The position numbers and the translations under genes were made by a program. This document shows positions 33,677 through 44,922 of a DNA stretch of 64,000 bases, in pieces. Each line of letters starts with the position of its first letter. The first letter of the stretch is position 1. Source of the DNA: Candidatus Entotheonellaceae bacterium (GTDB lineage: Bacteria; Tectomicrobia; Entotheonellia; Entotheonellales; Entotheonellaceae); assembly GCA_965238075.1 (NCBI GenBank), contig OZ250173.1, forward strand, positions 2,848,001-2,912,000, given 5' to 3'. Under the pieces are notes generated by a model. That model did no database searches and had not been told where the DNA came from. It saw nothing but the letters and a program-made list of their open reading frames with translations.

Positions 33677-35350
33677 TTATCGCAGCGCCCCTGCGGCCGT
33701 GCGTTCCTTGGCCGGGAAGAGACCCGTGGGTCTGATCTGCAGGAAAATGATGACCAGCACGAGAATGCTGACCTTGGCGTAAACGGCGGCGGCGGTGCCG
33801 GCGATCAGCGGCTCCAGAAGTTTGTTCGACATGCCGATGACGCCGGACGCCAGGACCGTGCCGAACAGTTTGCCGACCCCGCCCAGCACCACGACCATGA
33901 ATGAATCGACAATATAGGTCTTGCCTACCTCCGGGTCCACAGTGCCGATGAGGCTCAAAGCGCAACCCGCCAGCCCCGCCAAAGCGGTACCGAGCGCGAA
34001 GGTGAAGGCGTCAACTTTGCGTGTGGAAATGCCGATGCAGGCGGCCATGTCGCGATTCTGCATCACCGAACGGATGCGCAGGCCGACGTTGGAGCGATAC
34101 AGCAGCAGATACACCATGGCAAGGGCGAACACCGACAGGGCAATGATGAAGAGCCGGCTATAGGGGAAAATGAGCCCTGGCATGACCTCCCAGCCACCGC
34201 GAAACCAGGTGGGCGGACTGACGCTCGTTTGATCACCGAAATAAAGACGCGCGCCCTGTTGCAGCACCATGCCGATACCCCACGTGATGAGTAGGCTTTC
34301 GAGCGGGCGGCCATACAGGAAACGCAGGATGCCGCGTTCCATCAACAGGCCGACACAGCCCGCCGTTAGGATGGATAAGGGCAGAGCAAAGATGAAGTAA
34401 TAGTCAAGATAATCCGGCAGGTGTGAGGTGAAGAATTCTTGCAGCACGTAGGCGGTGTACGAGCCGATCATCAGCATTTCGCCATGCGCCATGTTGATGA
34501 TGCCCATCAGTCCGAAGGTAATCGCGAGTCCCAGGCTCATGATCAGCAGGACGGAGGCAAGACTCACGCCGTTGAAGATGTAGCCGACGCTGTTGCGAAC
34601 AAGCAGAAAATTCTCAATGGTTTCGACGGCTCCGATGACCGCGGCCCGTACTTGGGGGTCGGGCTCCTGCTGGCGCATTTCGCGTAAGCGGCTCAGCGCG
34701 GCTTCCGAGCGCCTGTCACCGAAGTAGTTGACGGCCGCGCGCCGTGCCTGCGCTTCCGGCGCGAACAATTGCAATTTGTTGACGGCCTCGATGAGGACGT
34801 TACGCACCACGGTATCCGGTTCCGCGTCGCGCGCCTTTGTCAGGATGGGAATGAGGGATACGTCGCGCATATTCCCCAGGCGCAGAGCGGTCGAGCGCCG
34901 CGCACCCGGATCCGATGCAAAAAGTGCGATAACGTCAAGAGCGCGTTGCACTAGCGGGATGTTTTCTTCCTCTAAGGGGACCTGCTCAAGACCCTCCTCG
35001 GGGAAAATGGCCTCACCGGCGTCGTCGAGCAGCGGGGTGCCGGCGAGGTCTACAAAAACCCCATCGTCGGTGAAGATGAGGAAGCCTTCCGGCCAGCGAT
35101 ACAGGGCGCCTTCCTTCAGGGCCTGGAGCAGGCCCCGGAAGGCCGGGTCGGCGAGGTCACGGATGTGCTCGAGGGTGGCCCGCTGGGTAGCGAGCGTGGC
35201 GAGGTCCTGGGCATAGTCGGCGGGCGTGTCCGCCGCGACCGACGCGTTGGGCAACGCGCCGCCGGCACAGCACACGACCAGCAGGAAGGTCAGGATGCGT
35301 AACAATTCAGGTCTCCGCGTGCTTGAAATAGTTACGGGGGAATCCCTCAA
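33677..35350 (-). CDS. urtB: Urea ABC transporter permease with N-terminal HEAT-like extension
   Basis: GLAITFGLMGIINMAHGE, LYGRPLE, YIVDSFMVVVLGGVG. Start uncertain. Confidence 0.9.
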   Translation of the reverse strand: MRDSPVTISSTRRPELLRILTFLLVVCCAGGALPNASVAADTPADYAQDLATLATQRATLEHIRDLADPAFRGLLQALKEGALYRWPEGFLIFTDDGVFVDLAGTPLLDDAGEAIFPEEGLEQVPLEEENIPLVQRALDVIALFASDPGARRSTALRLGNMRDVSLIPILTKARDAEPDTVVRNVLIEAVNKLQLFAPEAQARRAAVNYFGDRRSEAALSRLREMRQQEPDPQVRAAVIGAVETIENFLLVRNSVGYIFNGVSLASVLLIMSLGLAITFGLMGIINMAHGEMLMIGSYTAYVLQEFFTSHLPDYLDYYFIFALPLSILTAGCVGLLMERGILRFLYGRPLESLLITWGIGMVLQQGARLYFGDQTSVSPPTWFRGGWEVMPGLIFPYSRLFIIALSVFALAMVYLLLYRSNVGLRIRSVMQNRDMAACIGISTRKVDAFTFALGTALAGLAGCALSLIGTVDPEVGKTYIVDSFMVVVLGGVGKLFGTVLASGVIGMSNKLLEPLIAGTAAAVYAKVSILVLVIIFLQIRPTGLFPAKERTAAGALR

Positions 35351-35377: not shown

Positions 35378-36730
35378 TTATCGCTGAGACAGCCAGGCGC
35401 GGTCGCCATTCACCATATCATAGGTTCCCAGGCCGTCGCCGCTCCAATCGCAGGCCCGACCGGGATAGGTCAACTCGCTCCACGGCAGGGGCCGCACCCA
35501 CTCCTTGCTCTTCCACACGACGTCGAACTGACCATCTTCGCGGATTTTGCCGATGTAGACCGGCTTCCAGGTGTGATGGTTCTTCTCGTCGACCTTGTAA
35601 TTGCCGACGGGGCTGCTGACCGTCAGACCTTCCAGCGCCTTCAGAACCGGTTCGACGTCCGTGCTGCCGGCCTTCTCGACGGCCTGGGCCCACAGTTTGA
35701 CGTGCGTGTAGGCGTGCATCATCGGATCATCGGTCACGCACTGTTTGTCGGGGATGCCGCGCTTTTCGCACCATTTCTTGTACGCTTTCACCCACTTGAA
35801 GTTCTGCGGGGACTTCAGCGACATGTAGTAGTTCCAGGAAGCGAGATGGCCGGCCAGGGGCTTGACGTCCAGGGTCTGCAATTCGACCTCGGCAAAGCTG
35901 AACGAAATCACCGGACAGGTGTCGGCCGTGATGCCCTGATTGGCCAGTTCCTTGAAGAACGGCACATTGCTGTCGCCGTTGATGGTGTTGATCACAGCGC
36001 CATCACCGCCGGCACAGAAGCTTTTGATCTTGCCAACGATGGTCTGGTAATCCTGATGGTGAAACGGCGTGTATTCCTCAGCGATGCCGTCCTCCATGAC
36101 GCCCTTGGCCTTGGTGAGGTAGAGCCGCAGGATTTTGTTCGTGGTGCGCGGATAGACGTAGTCCGTACCTATAAGGTAGAAGCGCTTTTTGCCGCCGCCT
36201 TCCGGGCTCATCAGGTAATCCACCGCGGGAGAGGCTTGCTGGTTGATGGTCGCACCGGTATAGATGACGTTCTTGGAGCACTCTTCACCCTCGTACTGGA
36301 CAGGGTAGAAAAGGAGGCCGTTGTACTGCTCAAACACCGGCAGCACGGACTTGCGGCTGACCGAGGTCCAACAGCCAAAAACCGTCGCCACCTCATCTTG
36401 CGTTAGGAGCTTTTTGGCCTTTTCGGCAAAGAGGTCCCAATTCGAGGCGGGATCTTCCACGATCGGCTCGACAGGGCGCCCCAACACCCCACCAGCCTCG
36501 TTAATTTCCTCGATGGCCATGAGGATAATTTCCTTGAGGGGTCCCTCGCTGATGGCCATGGTGCCGCTCAGCGAATGCAACACGCCTACTTTGATGGGCT
36601 CCTGTGCCATGGCGCCGGTGCCCATCAGTCCCGCCAACAGGATAAGCGAGAGCCCGAGGGTGCAGGCCGTGCGTTTCACGGCCTGCCATTTGTGCGTGCG
36701 GGCCCAGCCCGCGGTGTGCAAGTTGGTCAC
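35378..36730 (-). CDS. urtA: Urea ABC transporter substrate-binding protein
   Basis: Signal peptide, IKVGVLHSLSGTMAISE, FGCWTSVSRKSVLPVFE, YPVQYEGEE, GTDYVYPRTTN. Confidence 0.95.
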   Translation of the reverse strand: MTNLHTAGWARTHKWQAVKRTACTLGLSLILLAGLMGTGAMAQEPIKVGVLHSLSGTMAISEGPLKEIILMAIEEINEAGGVLGRPVEPIVEDPASNWDLFAEKAKKLLTQDEVATVFGCWTSVSRKSVLPVFEQYNGLLFYPVQYEGEECSKNVIYTGATINQQASPAVDYLMSPEGGGKKRFYLIGTDYVYPRTTNKILRLYLTKAKGVMEDGIAEEYTPFHHQDYQTIVGKIKSFCAGGDGAVINTINGDSNVPFFKELANQGITADTCPVISFSFAEVELQTLDVKPLAGHLASWNYYMSLKSPQNFKWVKAYKKWCEKRGIPDKQCVTDDPMMHAYTHVKLWAQAVEKAGSTDVEPVLKALEGLTVSSPVGNYKVDEKNHHTWKPVYIGKIREDGQFDVVWKSKEWVRPLPWSELTYPGRACDWSGDGLGTYDMVNGDRAWLSQR

Positions 36731-37015: not shown

Positions 37016-38287
37016 TCAAAGCAAGTCGAGGCTGGGCGTGATGACCAGATGCAGGCGTCGATGGGCCTCGCGCAGGGTCTGTTCGACCGCCTGTGGGGTT
37101 TCACCGCGGGCAAAAATGAACCCGGGGTAACTGGCGCCCTCGGGGAAGGGCTGGAGTTTCTCATGCGGCTTGGCGGTGATCACAACATCTTCGATGCCGG
37201 GAAGGCTGAGTGCCGCGTCCAGGCCCGTCACATGTTTGAAAAAACCAGCGCGGGGAATGGGTAGCATCATAGTTCCGGCAGCAGCCTGCTCGCGTTTCAG
37301 AGAGGGCAGAGGGAGGCCGCACGCGTGACGGATGAGCAGCTCTTCAAGGGACATCCCGGTCCCAAAGCGCAGCGAGCGGCTTCACAAGCCGCCGATGGGC
37401 CGGGCGGCGAGTTCGAGGAGCCAGGGGCCTTGGCCGTTGACCCGAAATTCGGCGTGCAAAGGACCGTGGCAGAGACCCAGGGTAAGGGCTGCCTGTTCGG
37501 CGCAGCGGACGATCTCGGCCTGCAGGTCCGCACTGAGACGGGAAGGGGTGATGTAGAGGGTTTCTTCAAAAAAAGGACCGTTCAGCGGGTCGGGCTTATC
37601 AAACAGGGCCAACGGTTGCAGACGGCCCGCGGTTAACAGACCTTCCAGGGCGACCTCGGCACCGGGAATGAAACTTTCGATGAGGATCCCTTCGTTGGCT
37701 TCATCTTGTTTCTGGCGTATTTCATGCCGTTCCAGCAAGGCGCGCAACCGAAGGAAGGCGGCAATAAATTCGGCCGGGGTATTGGCCCGCATGACACCGC
37801 GACTCGCCGACAGGGCGAGCGGCTTAACGACACATGGGTACGGAACCTCGTGTTGCACGAGACGGGGGTCGGTTTGCATCGGGAAACACATAAAAGCCGG
37901 CACTTGCGCAAAAGTCGCCTGCAGGCGCTGGCGCATGAGGTATTTGTTGTGGCTGGACAGCACGGCGTCCGGTGGATTGTGCAGCAAACCCAACTCGCGG
38001 CTCGCTTTCGCGGCGCTGAGAAGAGGGGTGTCACCCACGGGGAGAATGGCGGCGACGGGTTGCTGCCCAGCAACATCGACGATGCGCCGTGCGGCTTCCT
38101 GTGGGCGCTCAAACCGTAGCGGCACGGCATCGTCTTCCCAGGGATCGTCCAGAACATCACAGCGGTCGCTGCCGAGCACCGTTTCCACGCCGAGTTGCTG
38201 AGCCGTCCGTATGAATTCTCGTGCCTCATACCCTGTCGTCGTATACAGGAGCATGAGCCGGGAACGGCCGACGTCGGGTGTTGTCAT
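37016..38287 (-). CDS. ATP-grasp domain protein, predicted selenoprotein (UGA at 37382-37384 = Sec302)
   Basis: ORFs 37382.. and 37016..37354 are in one frame: VVKPLALSASRGVMRA...IESFIPGAEVALEG...DKPDPLNGPFFEET...HAEFR...LELAARPIGGL-TGA-SRSLRFGTGMSLEE...YPGFIFARG. A hairpin follows the UGA. Confidence 0.8.
37339..37381 (-). promoter_or_regulatory. Candidate SECIS element of the ATP-grasp gene
   Basis: 18 nt after UGA the mRNA reads GGGAC-CGGGAU-GUCCC, extendable by GCUUU/AGAGC; G-rich apical loop at about +24 to +29. Confidence 0.6.
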
Positions 38288-38339
38288 CCTGATTTCCCCA
38301 GACTGTGCGCATGGCCAGAGTACCAAGAAGACCTTGGTT

Positions 38340-39740
38340 CTAGAACGGAGCAACCTGCTCCTCGGTGGGTTCCGCTCAACAATACCACGGTTCATCAAGG
38401 TAAGGAACGGGCCCACGGGCTGGCGGGGCAACGGGGGCAGGCACCAGCGGAGCGGGAATTTGGGCGGCCTTGTGGGCGGCGTGCCAGAGGCGTTCAAATA
38501 TCTCATAGCGGCCGGCGCCTTCCGTCTCACCGCTTTGGACCAATTGGAGCGCCTCCGTGCAGAGGCCATCCATCCGTACGTCGGGATGTTCCCAGCGGTA
38601 CGACAGGGCGTCGGCGTCGAATTCCCGCAGCGACAGACCCATTTCGGGCAGGTCAAGCAGTTTGGAGCCGTCAGGGATCAGCAAGCGCATGGCGAGTTGG
38701 ATGGGTGCGACGTGTTCGATCAGACCTTGCGTGGCGATTACGGTCAGTAAGTCGATATAGTCGGGCAAAAAGGTCCAGGGCATGAAGGCGACAAAGGTCG
38801 GATTGAGGCAAATTTCGGCTTGCCTGCACCGGGCCAGAGCCTGGAGAAAATCCTGTCGGGTGTGGCCTTTATCGAGCAGACGCAGAACGCCATCCTGGAC
38901 GGACTCCACGGCGCTCGTCACCATCAGGCAGCCGGTTTGGCGGAGGGTGGGCAGATGCTCGTCATACCGCAACAGGTGTTCTATCTTGATGGTGACGTCG
39001 TAGGTGAGGCTGGGGAACTCCCGGTGCAGGTCATGCACCAACGGCACGGCGTGGCCGATACCGTTGAAAAAATCGGGGTCGCCAAAGGTCACGTGCTCGG
39101 CGCCGGCCGCGACCTGGCGCCGGATATCTTCCAGGACGACGTCCCTCTGCACGATGCGAAAACGGCCCTCATAGACCGGCACGATCGGACAATGGCGACA
39201 GAAGTGTTTGCAGCCGCGGCTGGCTTCCGTGTAGCCGACGACGTGTGACCGCTCGCCTATTTTGAGTTGGGCGTAAACTGGCAGGGGGGGTAAATCGCGC
39301 CGATCAGGTACCTGAAACTGTTGGCGATCCAGGGAAGTGACGACTTCCGGCTGTTGGGCAGGGGGTGTGGAATCTGTCTGAAGGCGTTGCACGAGTCGTA
39401 ACAGCCCAGATTCAAATTCCCCACCGAGCAGGGTGGCGGCCCCCAGTTCGCGTAACAATCGGTCATTCATGGGGGCGTAAAGGCCATAGAAGCAGAGGTG
39501 AGCTTGCGGGTTAAGGGTCTTGACATGTTTCGCAACCTGGATGGCAATCCGCGTTGCGGTGTGCATGGGGATGTAGAAGGCCACAAGGTCGGCCGCCAGA
39601 ATGGCCTCACGGTCCAGGCGACTGCGTGACAAATCCTGGCACCGAACCGTCGCTCCTGCCTGTCGTAGCCAAGCGGCAGGGGAAGCCAGGCCAAAAGGCT
39701 GCCGTCCCAATTCATAGGTTGCGAGGAGTACAACACGCAC
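38340..39740 (-). CDS. CUAEP-tail radical SAM selenoprotein with B12-binding-like N-terminal domain
   Basis: ASRGCKHFCRHC (CxxxCxxC). C-terminus reads PVPYLDEPWYC-TGA-AEPTEEQVAPF-TAG (TGA 38376-38378; true stop 38340-38342). Start is GTG 39740 or 39749. Confidence 0.88.
38343..38375 (-). promoter_or_regulatory. Candidate SECIS element of the radical SAM gene
   Basis: 14 nt after UGA the mRNA reads GGAGCA-GGU-UGCUCC (6-bp stem), with a lower GAAC/GUUC pairing; loop G at about +21. Confidence 0.7.
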
Positions 39741-39771: not shown

Positions 39772-40092
39772 CTAGCCCTTGCCCATTGGCGGAACGTACC
39801 CTGGCGGCAGGGCAGCGCCTTCGCCGAAAAAGAATTCTTCCATTTGCTGACGGATGAACTCGTCGGCTTGTGGGTCCATGACATTCAGACGGTATTCATT
39901 TAGAATCATCGTCAGGAAGCCTTTCCACAATTCCCAAGCCTCCATGGAGATGTTTTCATAGATACGTTGACGTAATTCAGCCCCTCCCATCGATTCAGTC
40001 ATTTCCAAGGCAATGCCGCCCTGAAGATCGTCCTCATCAATACCAGGAGCCTCTTTTTGAAGCTTTGTGCAGTAGACGAATCGTTGCGTCAT
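39772..40092 (-). CDS. yggX: Fe(II)-trafficking / Fe-S oxidative-damage protection protein
   Basis: VYCTKLQKEAPG...RIYENISMEAWELW...TMILNEYRLN...MEEFFFG...GYVPP. Confidence 0.85.
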   Translation of the reverse strand: MTQRFVYCTKLQKEAPGIDEDDLQGGIALEMTESMGGAELRQRIYENISMEAWELWKGFLTMILNEYRLNVMDPQADEFIRQQMEEFFFGEGAALPPGYVPPMGKG

Positions 40093-40511: not shown

Positions 40512-40569
40512 CCTGTACGGGCAATCCTTTTGAGCGGCATTTTACATTGAGCGGGTGCTGCAGGGACAC

Positions 40570-41289
40570 ATGAACGTGAAAGCAACGCTGACTCAAAAAC
40601 GTGTCGCGGGGCTTATTCCGGCTGCCGGCAGTGGCGTCCGGATGGGTGGGGACATTGCGAAGCCGTTTTTGCAACTCGGCGGGCGAGAGATATTGGCCCG
40701 CACGTTGGACGTTTTTGAACGTTCTGCGGTTATCGATGAGTTATGGGTTGTCGTTGCGGCCAAAAATGTTTCTGCTTGCCAACAGGGAATCATCAAACGT
40801 TATGGATTCCGTAAAGTGCGCGACGTCGTGGCAGGGGGAGCGAGTCGCCAGGAATCGGTTTGGCGTGGTCTGCAGCGGATCGATGCGGCGGTTGACCTCG
40901 TGGTGGTTCATGATGGCGTGCGCCCTTTTGTAACGGAGGCGGTTTTGCAAGAAACGCTGGGTTGTGCCGCACAGCACGGTGCCGCCGTGGCAGCCGTGCC
41001 GCTGCGAGATACGCTGAAGCGCATCTCCGAAGGGGGAGTAGTTGAAGCAACGATCCCGCGGGAAAATTTGTGGCGTACGCAGACGCCGCAGGCATTTCAG
41101 CGGCATCTCCTGATGTCGGCGTATCGTCAGGCTTGGGAGCGAGGCGTGTGTGCGACAGATGACGCCGGTCTGCTCGAATCGATAGGACATCCGGTGAAAG
41201 TGGTCTCGGGGCTGGAAAGCAACATCAAGATTACGACCCCGGAAGACTTGATTTTCAGCGAAGGGTTGCTGCGCACCCCGCGTCAGTGA
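40570..41289 (+). CDS. ispD: 2-C-methyl-D-erythritol 4-phosphate cytidylyltransferase
   Basis: IPAAGSGVRMG, GGASRQESV, VHDGVRP, QTPQAF, TDDA, NIKITTPEDL. Confidence 0.95.
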   Translation: MNVKATLTQKRVAGLIPAAGSGVRMGGDIAKPFLQLGGREILARTLDVFERSAVIDELWVVVAAKNVSACQQGIIKRYGFRKVRDVVAGGASRQESVWRGLQRIDAAVDLVVVHDGVRPFVTEAVLQETLGCAAQHGAAVAAVPLRDTLKRISEGGVVEATIPRENLWRTQTPQAFQRHLLMSAYRQAWERGVCATDDAGLLESIGHPVKVVSGLESNIKITTPEDLIFSEGLLRTPRQ

Positions 41290-42830: not shown

Positions 42831-42882
42831 CCTGTTTGTACCCATCTTCACATATTGCATATTGTTCAACGCATGCGTTCTT

Positions 42883-42965
42883 GGGGAGGTTCCCGAGCGG
42901 TCAAAGGGGACAGACTGTAAATCTGTTGGCTGATGTCTTCGGAGGTTCGAATCCTCCCCTCCCCA
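42883..42965 (+). tRNA. tRNA-Tyr (GTA)
   Basis: ggggagg/cctcccc acceptor; acaga-ctGTAaa-tctgt; long variable arm; GTTCGAA. Confidence 0.95.
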
Positions 42966-42994
42966 TTGGATGATGTGGGTGTTGGCGACACGTT

Positions 42995-43068
42995 GCGGGA
43001 ATAGCTCAGTTGGCTAGAGCATCAGCCTTCCAAGCTGAGGGTCGCGGGTTCGAGTCCCGTTTCCCGCT
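42995..43068 (+). tRNA. tRNA-Gly (TCC)
   Basis: gcgggaa/ttcccgc acceptor; tcagc-ctTCCaa-gctga. Confidence 0.95.
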
Positions 43069-43098
43069 TTCTTATTGTGTGATGTCGTTTCGGTGAAC

Positions 43099-43171
<73 letters not shown>

Positions 43172-43253
43172 CCTTTTCGCAGCCACTGTAGATTATTTTC
43201 TGCATTGTAATTTCTGGAACACAGCATATTCGACACAGAGGGGGATTGAGTTA

Positions 43254-44447
43254 ATGTCGAAGGCGAAATTCAAGCGTAGCAAGCCGCACGTCAACGTCGG
43301 GACGATCGGTCACGTAGACCACGGCAAGACGACGCTCACGTCTGCCATAACGCAGGTACTGGCAGCGCAAGGCAAGGCGGACTATGTGCCCTTTGACCAG
43401 ATCGACAAGGCGCCCGAGGAAAAAGCCCGCGGCATCACCATTGCTACTGCACACGTGGAATACGAAAGCGAGAACCGCCACTACGCCCACGTCGATTGTC
43501 CGGGTCACGCCGACTACGTGAAGAACATGATCACGGGTGCAGCGCAGATGGACGGGGCGATCTTGGTGGTGAGTGCCGCCGATGGCGCGATGCCGCAGAC
43601 GCGCGAGCATATCCTGTTGGCGCGTCAGGTTGGGGTGCCCTACATCGTGGTGTTCATGAACAAAGTGGACATGGTGGACGATGAAGAGTTGCTGGACTTG
43701 GTGGAGTTGGAGTTGCGGGAGTTGCTTAGCAAGTACGAATTTCCTGGCGACGACATTCCGATTATCCGGGGCAGTGCACTGCAGGCCTTGGAGAGTGGCG
43801 ATCCGAGTGCTTCGGAGAGCGCTTGCGTCTTTGAGTTAATGGGTGCGATTGATGAATACGTGCCGACGCCGCAGCGCGCCATAGACCGGCCGTTTCTGAT
43901 GCCCGTGGAGGACGTATTCACGATATCGGGTCGAGGGACGGTGGCGACGGGTCGTATTGAGCGTGGCGTGGTGACGGTAGGCGACGATGTGGAGATCGTG
44001 GGGATGAAGGAGACGCACAAGACGGTGGCGACGGGCGTGGAGATGTTTCGGAAGATATTGGACCGTGGCGAGGCAGGTGATAACATAGGGGTATTGTTGC
44101 GCGGTGTGAAGCGCGATGAGATAGAGCGTGGTCAGGTATTGGCGAAGCCGGGTTCGATTACGCCACACACGCGTTTTCAGGCAGAGGTGTACGTGTTGTC
44201 GAAAGACGAGGGAGGTCGTCACACGCCGTTTTTCAATGGCTACCGGCCGCAGTTTTACTTTCGCACGACGGATGTGACGGGTGTGGTGACATTGCCCTCG
44301 GGTACGGAGATGGTGATGCCTGGGGACAACGTTGGCGTGGAGGTGGAGTTAATCACGCCGATTGCTTTGGAGAAAGAGTTGCGCTTTGCGATCCGTGAGG
44401 GCGGCCGGACGGTAGGGGCGGGCGTCGTTAGTGAAATACTGGCGTAG
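43254..44447 (+). CDS. tuf: Elongation factor Tu (copy 1)
   Basis: [35 protein letters not shown]. Confidence 0.99.
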
Positions 44448-44528
44448 CTTTCTTCTAGCTTTGTGATCACGTTGGTGAGTAATCGCCTCTTGGTGTGGAT
44501 GTGCCTGGAGATAACGTAAGGAGTACCC

Positions 44529-44678
44529 GTGCGAGATTTGGCTACTTTGGCGTGTGTCGAATGCAGGCGCCGCAACTACACGACGACGAAAAATAAGCGA
44601 CGCACTCCTCAGAGATTCGAGTTCAAAAAATACTGCCGCTTTTGTCGTCAGCATCAGCTCCATAGGGAAACGAGGTAA
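44529..44678 (+). CDS. rpmG: 50S ribosomal protein L33 (Zn-binding type; not in ORF track)
   Basis: GTG start after aaggag; [49 protein letters not shown]. Confidence 0.95.
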
Positions 44679-44721
44679 GCTGAACGTCAAGTTGCGGGGA
44701 AATTGGGAATCTCAAAACTGT

Positions 44722-44794
44722 AGGCCAGTAGCTCGAACGGTAGAGCACCGGACTCCAAATCCGGGTGATGGGGGTTCGAATCCCTCCTGGCCTG
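44722..44794 (+). tRNA. tRNA-Trp (CCA)
   Basis: aggccag/ctggcct acceptor; ccgga-ctCCAaa-tccgg; canonical position before secE. Confidence 0.93.
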
Positions 44795-44922
44795 CTTGAA
44801 TTAAAGAAACAGTGTGTGGTTCCCTGTAGCAAACAAATCGCACAGGCGACCAAAGAAAACGCGTCCGCCCTTACTATTTTCGCTGGCTAAGATACCCTCG
44901 TGCTACACTAAAGGTTGCTGCT

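Follow-up and report, generated by a model that had tools for sequence, protein, structure and literature searches.

The closest described relatives of the enzyme considered here are L-amino-acid ligases. BL00235 of Bacillus licheniformis (PDB 3VOT) has a three-domain ATP-grasp plus LAL_C2 architecture and, according to a review, makes Met-Gly and Met-Met, and thus takes an amino acid with a 3-amino-3-carboxypropyl skeleton. BacD, also called YwfE (PDB 3VMM, 3WNZ, and 3WO1), is an alanine-anticapsin ligase with an E-x3-R-x2-G catalytic segment, in which Trp332 is reviewed as governing substrate recognition. Here, we describe a ligase gene with the architecture of BL00235 and the catalytic segment of BacD in a 64,000-nucleotide stretch of DNA from a Candidatus Entotheonellaceae bacterium (assembly GCA_965238075.1, contig OZ250173.1, positions 2,848,001 to 2,912,000), the whole of which we call the window. 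An internal UGA of this gene very probably encodes selenocysteine (Sec) at residue 302, and the gene is the last of an operon that also encodes a radical S-adenosylmethionine (SAM) selenoprotein. BL00235, in contrast, is not a selenoprotein and is not linked to a radical SAM gene; it shares about 26% identity with the window protein, has Ser opposite residue 302, and carries a one-residue insertion in the GG loop. BacD differs in having Met opposite residue 302, two residues past the specificity-determining Trp332.

The ligase resembles the 119 prokaryotic selenoprotein families catalogued in 2026 (PMC13188914) in its in-frame UGA, the Cys of its homologues, and a hairpin closely downstream. 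Most families listed there are thiol oxidoreductase-like, and an amino-acid ligase of the ATP-grasp type would be a new class of enzyme among the bacterial selenoproteins. A sequence-only reading of the locus had placed ATP-grasp proteins outside the classic selenoprotein families, and indeed neither the main text of the catalogue, Table 1 included, nor that of the BSepDB paper contains the word "ligase" or "grasp". Full-text searching of the literature, with papers judged by title and the opening of the abstract, found no ATP-grasp selenoprotein, although the family may be listed as a candidate in supplementary tables. The gene appears to encode a genuine selenoprotein form of an uncharacterised family of ligases, one that had not been annotated before.

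The partner radical SAM protein belongs to the NCBIfam family NF040546, whose members end in a CUAEP or CCAEP tail. That family is like the ligase in alternating between Cys and Sec and in having a mini-hairpin just past the UGA; it is unlike the ligase in being a different protein family and in using Sec far more widely. The accessible text of the Haft and Gwadz preprint treats NF040546 as uncharacterised and makes no mention of ATP-grasp. The only characterised relative of the partner enzyme is ArsL, which is described as joining the 3-amino-3-carboxypropyl group of SAM to As(III) in the arsinothricin pathway. The arsinothricin cluster, however, is unlike the operon in the window, as it consists, according to the abstract of PMC8552651, of three genes, arsQML, and has no ATP-grasp ligase.

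The in-frame UGA and its hairpin

The features on which the argument turns are as follows.
37016..38287, minus strand: ATP-grasp ligase gene of the L-amino-acid-ligase type, 423 codons plus the terminal TGA at 37018-37016, with one internal TGA predicted to be read through
37382..37384, minus strand: UGA codon predicted to encode Sec at residue 302, opposite an otherwise invariant Cys; one TGA in the full-length matches of 9 genomes
37348..37363, minus strand: hairpin GGGAC-CGGGAU-GUCCC of the Sec insertion sequence (SECIS) type, starting 18 nt past the UGA and conserved among TGA-bearing relatives

The sequence-only reading had joined two open reading frames (ORFs) into a single protein of about 423 amino acids. 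The upstream ORF (37382..38656) and the ATG-started downstream ORF (37016..37354) do share one frame on the minus strand, and translation from 38287 to 37019 with TGA read as Sec (U) gives 423 residues from an ATG at 38287. U302, which lies in the context LELAARPIGGL-U-SRSLRFGTGMSLEE, is the sole internal TGA.

The same reading expected homologues to have "GGLC" at this place, and they do. Relatives read GGLCSR, and Cys stands at column 302 in 89 of the 120 best database relatives. Another 30 of the 120 are gene calls that stop exactly at ...IGGL and measure 290 to 398 amino acids, mostly 300 or 301; the NCBI entry P0081, at 301 amino acids, is an example of a public record truncated at the TGA. 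Public annotation, NCBI records included, thus shortens the Sec-form ligases to residue 301. At the nucleotide level, the column is TGC or TGT in 95 of 95 Cys-form loci (80 from genome contigs and 15 from the phylum of the window), 13 of which were confirmed by a looser motif only. The column is therefore neither Trp nor variable. We note that P0036 (366 amino acids), the sole member of the best 120 with neither Cys nor a stop at the column, reads GGFEAARLRFG and looks like a local double frameshift that bypasses the TGA of a Sec-clade gene.

Nor is the TGA peculiar to this assembly. Six-frame searches found full-length matches with exactly one TGA in nine genomes of three genera (67-100% identity), namely, the genome of the window, five congeners, and three genomes from two other genera of the same family. 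A degenerate DNA pattern (A-x-R-x-I-G-G-L-TGA-x-R-x-L-x-F) retrieved 46 metagenome stretches, of which 42 belong to the same clade, two (L150 and L155) form a second lineage, one (L152) lacks the hairpin, and one (L151) is unrelated. A single TGA stands at the residue-302 column in 45 of the 46, L151 being no homologue. At L148, a frameshift lies immediately past the hairpin. The family is distributed over Acidobacteriota, Methylomirabilota, Chloroflexota, Poribacteria, Nitrospirota, and Tectimicrobiota. In the phylum of genome G042, 401 genomes were sampled, and none of 133 ligase matches in the 131 homologue-bearing genomes had TGA at the column, a tally that includes the unpublished genomes G081, G387, and G216. 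Two matches there had been flagged as containing one TGA, and both proved to be ordinary terminal stops in genes with TGC at the column.

The sequence past the TGA behaves as coding sequence. The 121 downstream codons stay open in 32 loci, and the ratio of nonsynonymous to synonymous substitution rates is 0.07-0.21 downstream (five pairs) versus 0.08-0.14 upstream. Codons +1 to +5 change mostly synonymously, with Leu written as CTG, TTG, CTA, or TTA. This pattern indicates that purifying selection acts on the 121 codons past the TGA. Because the frame is open, the substitution ratio is low, and the downstream changes are synonymous in frame, we discount both a pseudogene and a split gene that restarts at Met312.

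The hairpin had been placed 18 nt past the UGA, and read directly from the letters the distance is exactly 18 nt. On the minus strand the 5' arm GGGAC occupies 37363-37359, the loop CGGGAU 37358-37353, and the 3' arm GUCCC 37352-37348. The spacing from UGA to loop is 23 nt, and the usual window in bacteria is 16-37 nt. The stem is complete, with all five pairs, in 19 of 20 distinct TGA sequences but in just 3 of 80 distinct Cys sequences, most of which keep two or three pairs. Over 31 distinct rows, 98.7% of the stem cells are paired, whereas 39-60% are paired when the partner is slid. Moreover, L150 and L155 have the stem GGCUC-CGGGUC-GAGCC in the identical register, where both partners have changed in two of the base pairs, and L021 has one G-U wobble. 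Finally, codons +6 to +11 (Phe-Gly-Thr-Gly-Met-Ser) show zero synonymous variation among 30 distinct sequences, while nearby Gly, Arg, and Ala codons vary. The hairpin thus appears to be both conserved and compensated.

Several observations weigh against the hairpin as a decoding signal and against the TGA as a reliable mark of Sec. The stem is short, at just 5 bp, and is invariant in the main clade, and the covariation comes from a single divergent lineage, represented by two contigs, and from one wobble. The 60 nt past the UGA gave a folding energy of z = +0.63, with 147 of 200 shuffles folding equally well or better, and an Rfam scan of 37200-38500 with E up to 10 returned a chance miR-132 match and no SECIS family. 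As the folding energy is not significant, the case for the hairpin rests on conservation. In addition, a TGA at this column can also arise by error or nonsense mutation, as indicated by the hairpin-less L152. That metagenome contig (1306-1365, minus strand) has TGA at the column of a Methylomirabilota-type ligase, keeps three of the five pairs, and has Cys-type codon usage. Because the hairpin is absent and the codon usage is of the Cys type, the TGA of L152 is probably a nonsense change or sequencing error, and it provides a natural negative control.

Another helix can be drawn closer to the UGA.
37364..37383, minus strand: tentative second helix, in which the GA of the UGA plus AGC is paired with GCUUU of codons 307-308
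Here, 93.5% of the cells are paired, with mostly one-sided changes and nine unpaired cells in the two inner pairs. The helix is weak and possibly a by-product of codon choice. An extended lower stem in the fold of the window itself was dropped, as it is not conserved among relatives.

The genome is equipped to insert Sec. It carries tRNA-Sec (73.9 bits), SelB (357.7), SelD (318.8), and SelA (606.7), all above curated cut-offs. The selB and selA genes are adjacent on the same strand (G000:C1:1025501-1028793), and tRNA-Sec lies separately at 617194-617286. Translation of the ligase gene itself stops at a TGA, and therefore TGA is not generally reassigned.

We conclude that UGA 302 is very probably a genuine Sec codon in a functional ligase, given the Cys column, the persistence of the TGA, selection downstream, a TGA-specific and compensated hairpin, and the Sec machinery. 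Sec-tRNA(Sec) would be delivered by SelB-GTP, recruited by the 16-nt hairpin 18 nt downstream, and the product would be the 423-residue ligase rather than a 301-residue stump; the terminal UGA, which has no hairpin, would end translation. Public gene calls do end at the internal TGA in a quarter of the best relatives (30 of 120), and together with L152 and the frameshift at L148 they favor a nonsense mutation or assembly error that leaves a pseudogene or only the 301-residue stump. We consider that outcome highly improbable, however, as the same TGA recurs in nine genomes of three genera and about 42 contigs, the downstream frame stays open under purifying selection, the hairpin goes specifically with the TGA forms, and the stump would be without its LAL_C2 domain. 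A split gene, in which the 301-residue N-terminal protein is accompanied by a separate 112-residue C-terminal protein started at the Met312 ATG in the hairpin loop, has the ATG-started ORF at 37016..37354 in its favor. Residues 303-311 (SRxLRFGxG), however, are shared with the Cys forms, their codons change synonymously in frame, and in the second TGA lineage Ser replaces Met312, which leaves no start codon, so that this arrangement is scarcely credible. Selection on the downstream frame would be expected from read-through alone, and nothing specific favors decoding of the UGA as something other than Sec, be it Trp or Cys by a near-cognate tRNA or an alternative code. The chance of such decoding seems very slim: the same gene ends in a terminating TGA, the genome has the full Sec machinery, the hairpin is conserved and compensated at SECIS distance, the column is otherwise occupied by Cys, which is the classic counterpart of Sec, and the ligase TGA is found only in loci whose radical SAM gene also uses Sec.

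Origins of the Sec form

How often Sec arose in the ligase family was judged from a tree of 95 rows, 81 of them Cys forms and 14 of them from the 35 full-length TGA forms, with the trait column masked. The 21 TGA rows left out were mostly close relatives of rows that were kept. The 12 main-clade TGA rows form one clade with a support of 100 in the Shimodaira-Hasegawa-like approximate likelihood ratio test (SH-aLRT). L155 falls within a clade of Chloroflexota and Thermomicrobiota Cys forms (SH-aLRT 99), and L152 falls within a clade of Methylomirabilota and Rokubacteria (SH-aLRT 96). By the labels of the tree, the genome of the window belongs to the family of Candidatus Entotheonella (Tectimicrobiota), and L028, which comes from another genome of that family, matches a named Entotheonella record exactly. 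The tree requires three state changes at the column. As L155 is nested among Cys forms and has its own compensated hairpin, it appears to be a second independent Cys-to-Sec conversion, and the tree indicates that there are at least two separate Cys-to-Sec events in the family. Alignment of homologues, which the sequence-only reading had proposed as a check, thus returned a conserved Cys together with a second, phylogenetically separate TGA lineage. Because two independent Cys-to-Sec swaps occurred at one column, Cys302 is flagged as functional, which supplies a precise residue for mutagenesis and a hint of soft-heteroatom chemistry.

The second Sec lineage (L155, 4085-5314, minus strand, and L150) is 45-48% identical to the window protein. 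The neighbors of L155 are a major facilitator superfamily transporter gene and a divergent yggX-like gene, and no NF040546-type gene is present on its 11.9-kb contig. The genome of the window also encodes a Cys-form paralogue, L035 (G000:C1:2400419-2401654), which shares 48% identity with the Sec-form ligase and falls in a different clade of the tree. No NF040546 gene lies within the 1.5-kb flanks of the paralogue, and both paralogues are present in eight of the nine genomes with the Sec form.

Fold of the ligase and setting of residue 302

The Pfam domains of the window protein are ATP-grasp_4 (105.5 bits), LAL_C2 (61.1), and ATPgrasp_N (30), all above gathering scores. An AlphaFold2 model made from 30 homologues has a mean predicted local distance difference test score (pLDDT) of 87.8, with residues 44-50 below 50. 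By Foldseek, the query TM-score (TMq) of the model is 0.82 to BL00235 (3VOT), 0.75-0.76 to BacD, and 0.72 to RizA, and 3VOT is also the best sequence match among solved structures to the family profile (E 7.8e-65). By domains and predicted fold, the protein is an L-amino-acid-ligase-type ATP-grasp enzyme. Named equivalogs of NCBIfam were missed (BacD NF053745, 40.5 bits versus a cut-off of 850; DdaF NF041595, 29.1 versus 840), and because these scores fall far under the cut-offs, an ortholog of a named ligase is excluded.

The catalytic residues are nearly invariant. K155, E211, E215, E280, and R296 occur without exception in the 116 family rows, and E292 is missing from a single row. They were mapped onto RhiC and BacD by alignment and register. 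In the BacD alignment, E292, R296, G299, G300, and U302 stand opposite Glu, Arg, Gly, Trp332, and Met334, a register fixed by chain 3wo1, the W332A mutant of BacD. The sequence-only reading had taken ExxxRxxGG for the catalytic segment, in agreement with the Mg-binding Glu and catalytic Arg indicated by alignment to BacD and by register to RhiC and RhiM. The RhiM/RhiC paper assigns Mg2+ binding to the equivalent Glu and describes the Arg (R285/R275) as holding both the carboxylate of the substrate and the gamma-phosphate; it places RhiM Leu291, which is Arg+6, at the mouth of the pocket for the first substrate. Residue 302 is likewise catalytic Arg296 plus 6. By register, it would be the equivalent of RhiM Leu291, at the entrance of the side-chain pocket for the carboxylate-donor (N-terminal) substrate.

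Operon partners and the possible role of residue 302

Two genes precede the ligase in the same direction, in the order yggX-like, CUAEP radical SAM, and ligase.
38340..39740, minus strand: CUAEP-tail radical SAM selenoprotein gene, ArsL-like, with a GTG start at 39740, the Sec codon at 38378-38376, and the stop TAG at 38342-38340
39772..40092, minus strand: yggX-like gene for Fe(2+) trafficking, with which the operon begins (Pfam Iron_traffic, 95.9 bits)
The operon is unusual in that two of its three proteins would be selenoproteins. The radical SAM protein scores 631.8 bits with NF040546 (cut-off 500) and next 275.9 bits with ArsL NF040542, under the cut-off of 450. Its gene is the single NF040546 copy in the genome and has one TGA.

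The radical SAM gene has a hairpin of its own, GGAGC-AGGUU-GCUCC, 14 nt past its UGA. Across 60 distinct sequences, this mini-hairpin has a 5- to 7-bp stem, a loop of AGGUU or AGUUG, and many compensatory changes. The comparable element of a catalogued selenoprotein gene is thus a useful control, within the operon, for the hairpin of the ligase. We note that gene callers would end the CUAEP gene 11 codons early. Among ATG starts, the one at 39884 gives the radical SAM gene its longest ORF; that ORF overlaps the yggX-like gene in a different frame, and the GTG at 39740 is more likely to be the start.

The association of ligase and radical SAM enzyme extends beyond the window. Among 85 loci spanning 7 kb or more, an NF040546 radical SAM gene accompanied the ligase in 60 and a yggX-like gene did so in 57. 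We speak of a cassette where the ligase adjoins a radical SAM gene of NF040546, in most cases together with a yggX-like or Nfu-like gene, as it does in the window. Sec was found in both the ligase and the radical SAM tail in 35 loci and in the tail, with Cys in the ligase, in 31; no locus combined a Sec ligase with a Cys tail. A wider conserved gene set was considered and rejected, as the other recurring neighbors (aconitase, glucokinase, and glucose-6-phosphate dehydrogenase) reflect lineage synteny and are not pathway genes.

The role of Sec302 may follow from the partner. The ligase would be dedicated to an ArsL-like radical SAM enzyme with a C-terminal Cys-Sec (CU) dyad, which would transfer the 3-amino-3-carboxypropyl group from SAM onto a soft heteroatom bound at the CU or CC tail. 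The ligase would then activate the alpha-carboxylate of the product as an acyl phosphate, using Glu280/Glu292-Mg and Arg296, and join a second amino acid, while Cys or Sec302 would bind or receive the thiophilic heteroatom of the side chain. Because of the chemistry of ArsL and the presence of Cys or Sec at a putative substrate-facing site in both proteins, we tentatively suggest that residue 302 may be a ligand or acceptor for the soft heteroatom of the radical SAM product. A broader scenario, which we regard as speculative and on the whole unlikely, is that this is the first ATP-grasp selenoenzyme and that its selenol is a substrate handle rather than a redox center. The Cys-Sec tail and Sec302 would then form a selenol relay that moves an organo-metalloid or organo-chalcogen amino acid (3-amino-3-carboxypropyl on As, Se, S, or similar) into the ligase pocket, and the cassette, widespread in soil bacteria, would make a heteroatom-containing dipeptide.

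Three observations count against a heteroatom ligand at residue 302. Solved relatives carry Ser, Met, or His at column 302, for which reason Cys there appears to be specific to the radical-SAM-linked family. Other Cys residues of the family are not universal, with C43 in 76 and C152 in 109 of 116 rows, and a three-Cys metalloid site (C43, C152, and C302) is weakened by the limited occurrence of C43. Finally, the neighborhood survey found no arsenic or other metalloid genes conserved near the cassette, where, the three cassette genes apart, just housekeeping genes recur, and an arsenic-specific reading is weakened accordingly. Cys-to-Sec replacements typically mark nucleophilic or redox-active Cys residues. 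This tendency, and the fact that residue 302 adjoins the catalytic Arg segment, would favor another role for a real Sec302, either, as the sequence-only reading had suggested, as a nucleophile that attacks the acyl phosphate to give an acyl-selenoester, or as part of a selenenyl-sulfide or redox switch that would gate access to the active site when the cell is oxidatively stressed. Taken together, the two are less likely than not, and only slightly less likely than the ligand role. We know of no ATP-grasp enzyme with an enzyme thiol as acyl acceptor and of no precedent for the acyl-selenoester, and the aligned residues of solved ligases line the side-chain pocket, not the carboxylate. A redox switch would suit an operon whose radical SAM enzyme is oxygen-sensitive and whose yggX-like gene serves iron protection, and C43, in the low-confidence loop of the model, would be a candidate partner; C43, however, varies within the family, whereas residue 302 is invariant.

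Around the operon, an IspD gene lies at 40555-41289 on the plus strand, and a urea/branched-chain-type ATP-binding cassette (ABC) substrate-binding protein and permease are encoded at 35378-36730 and 33677-35350, both on the minus strand. Further along, tRNA genes and an EF-Tu gene (43254..44447) occupy 42880-44800. The flanks are housekeeping genes, and therefore the cassette is embedded among core genes.

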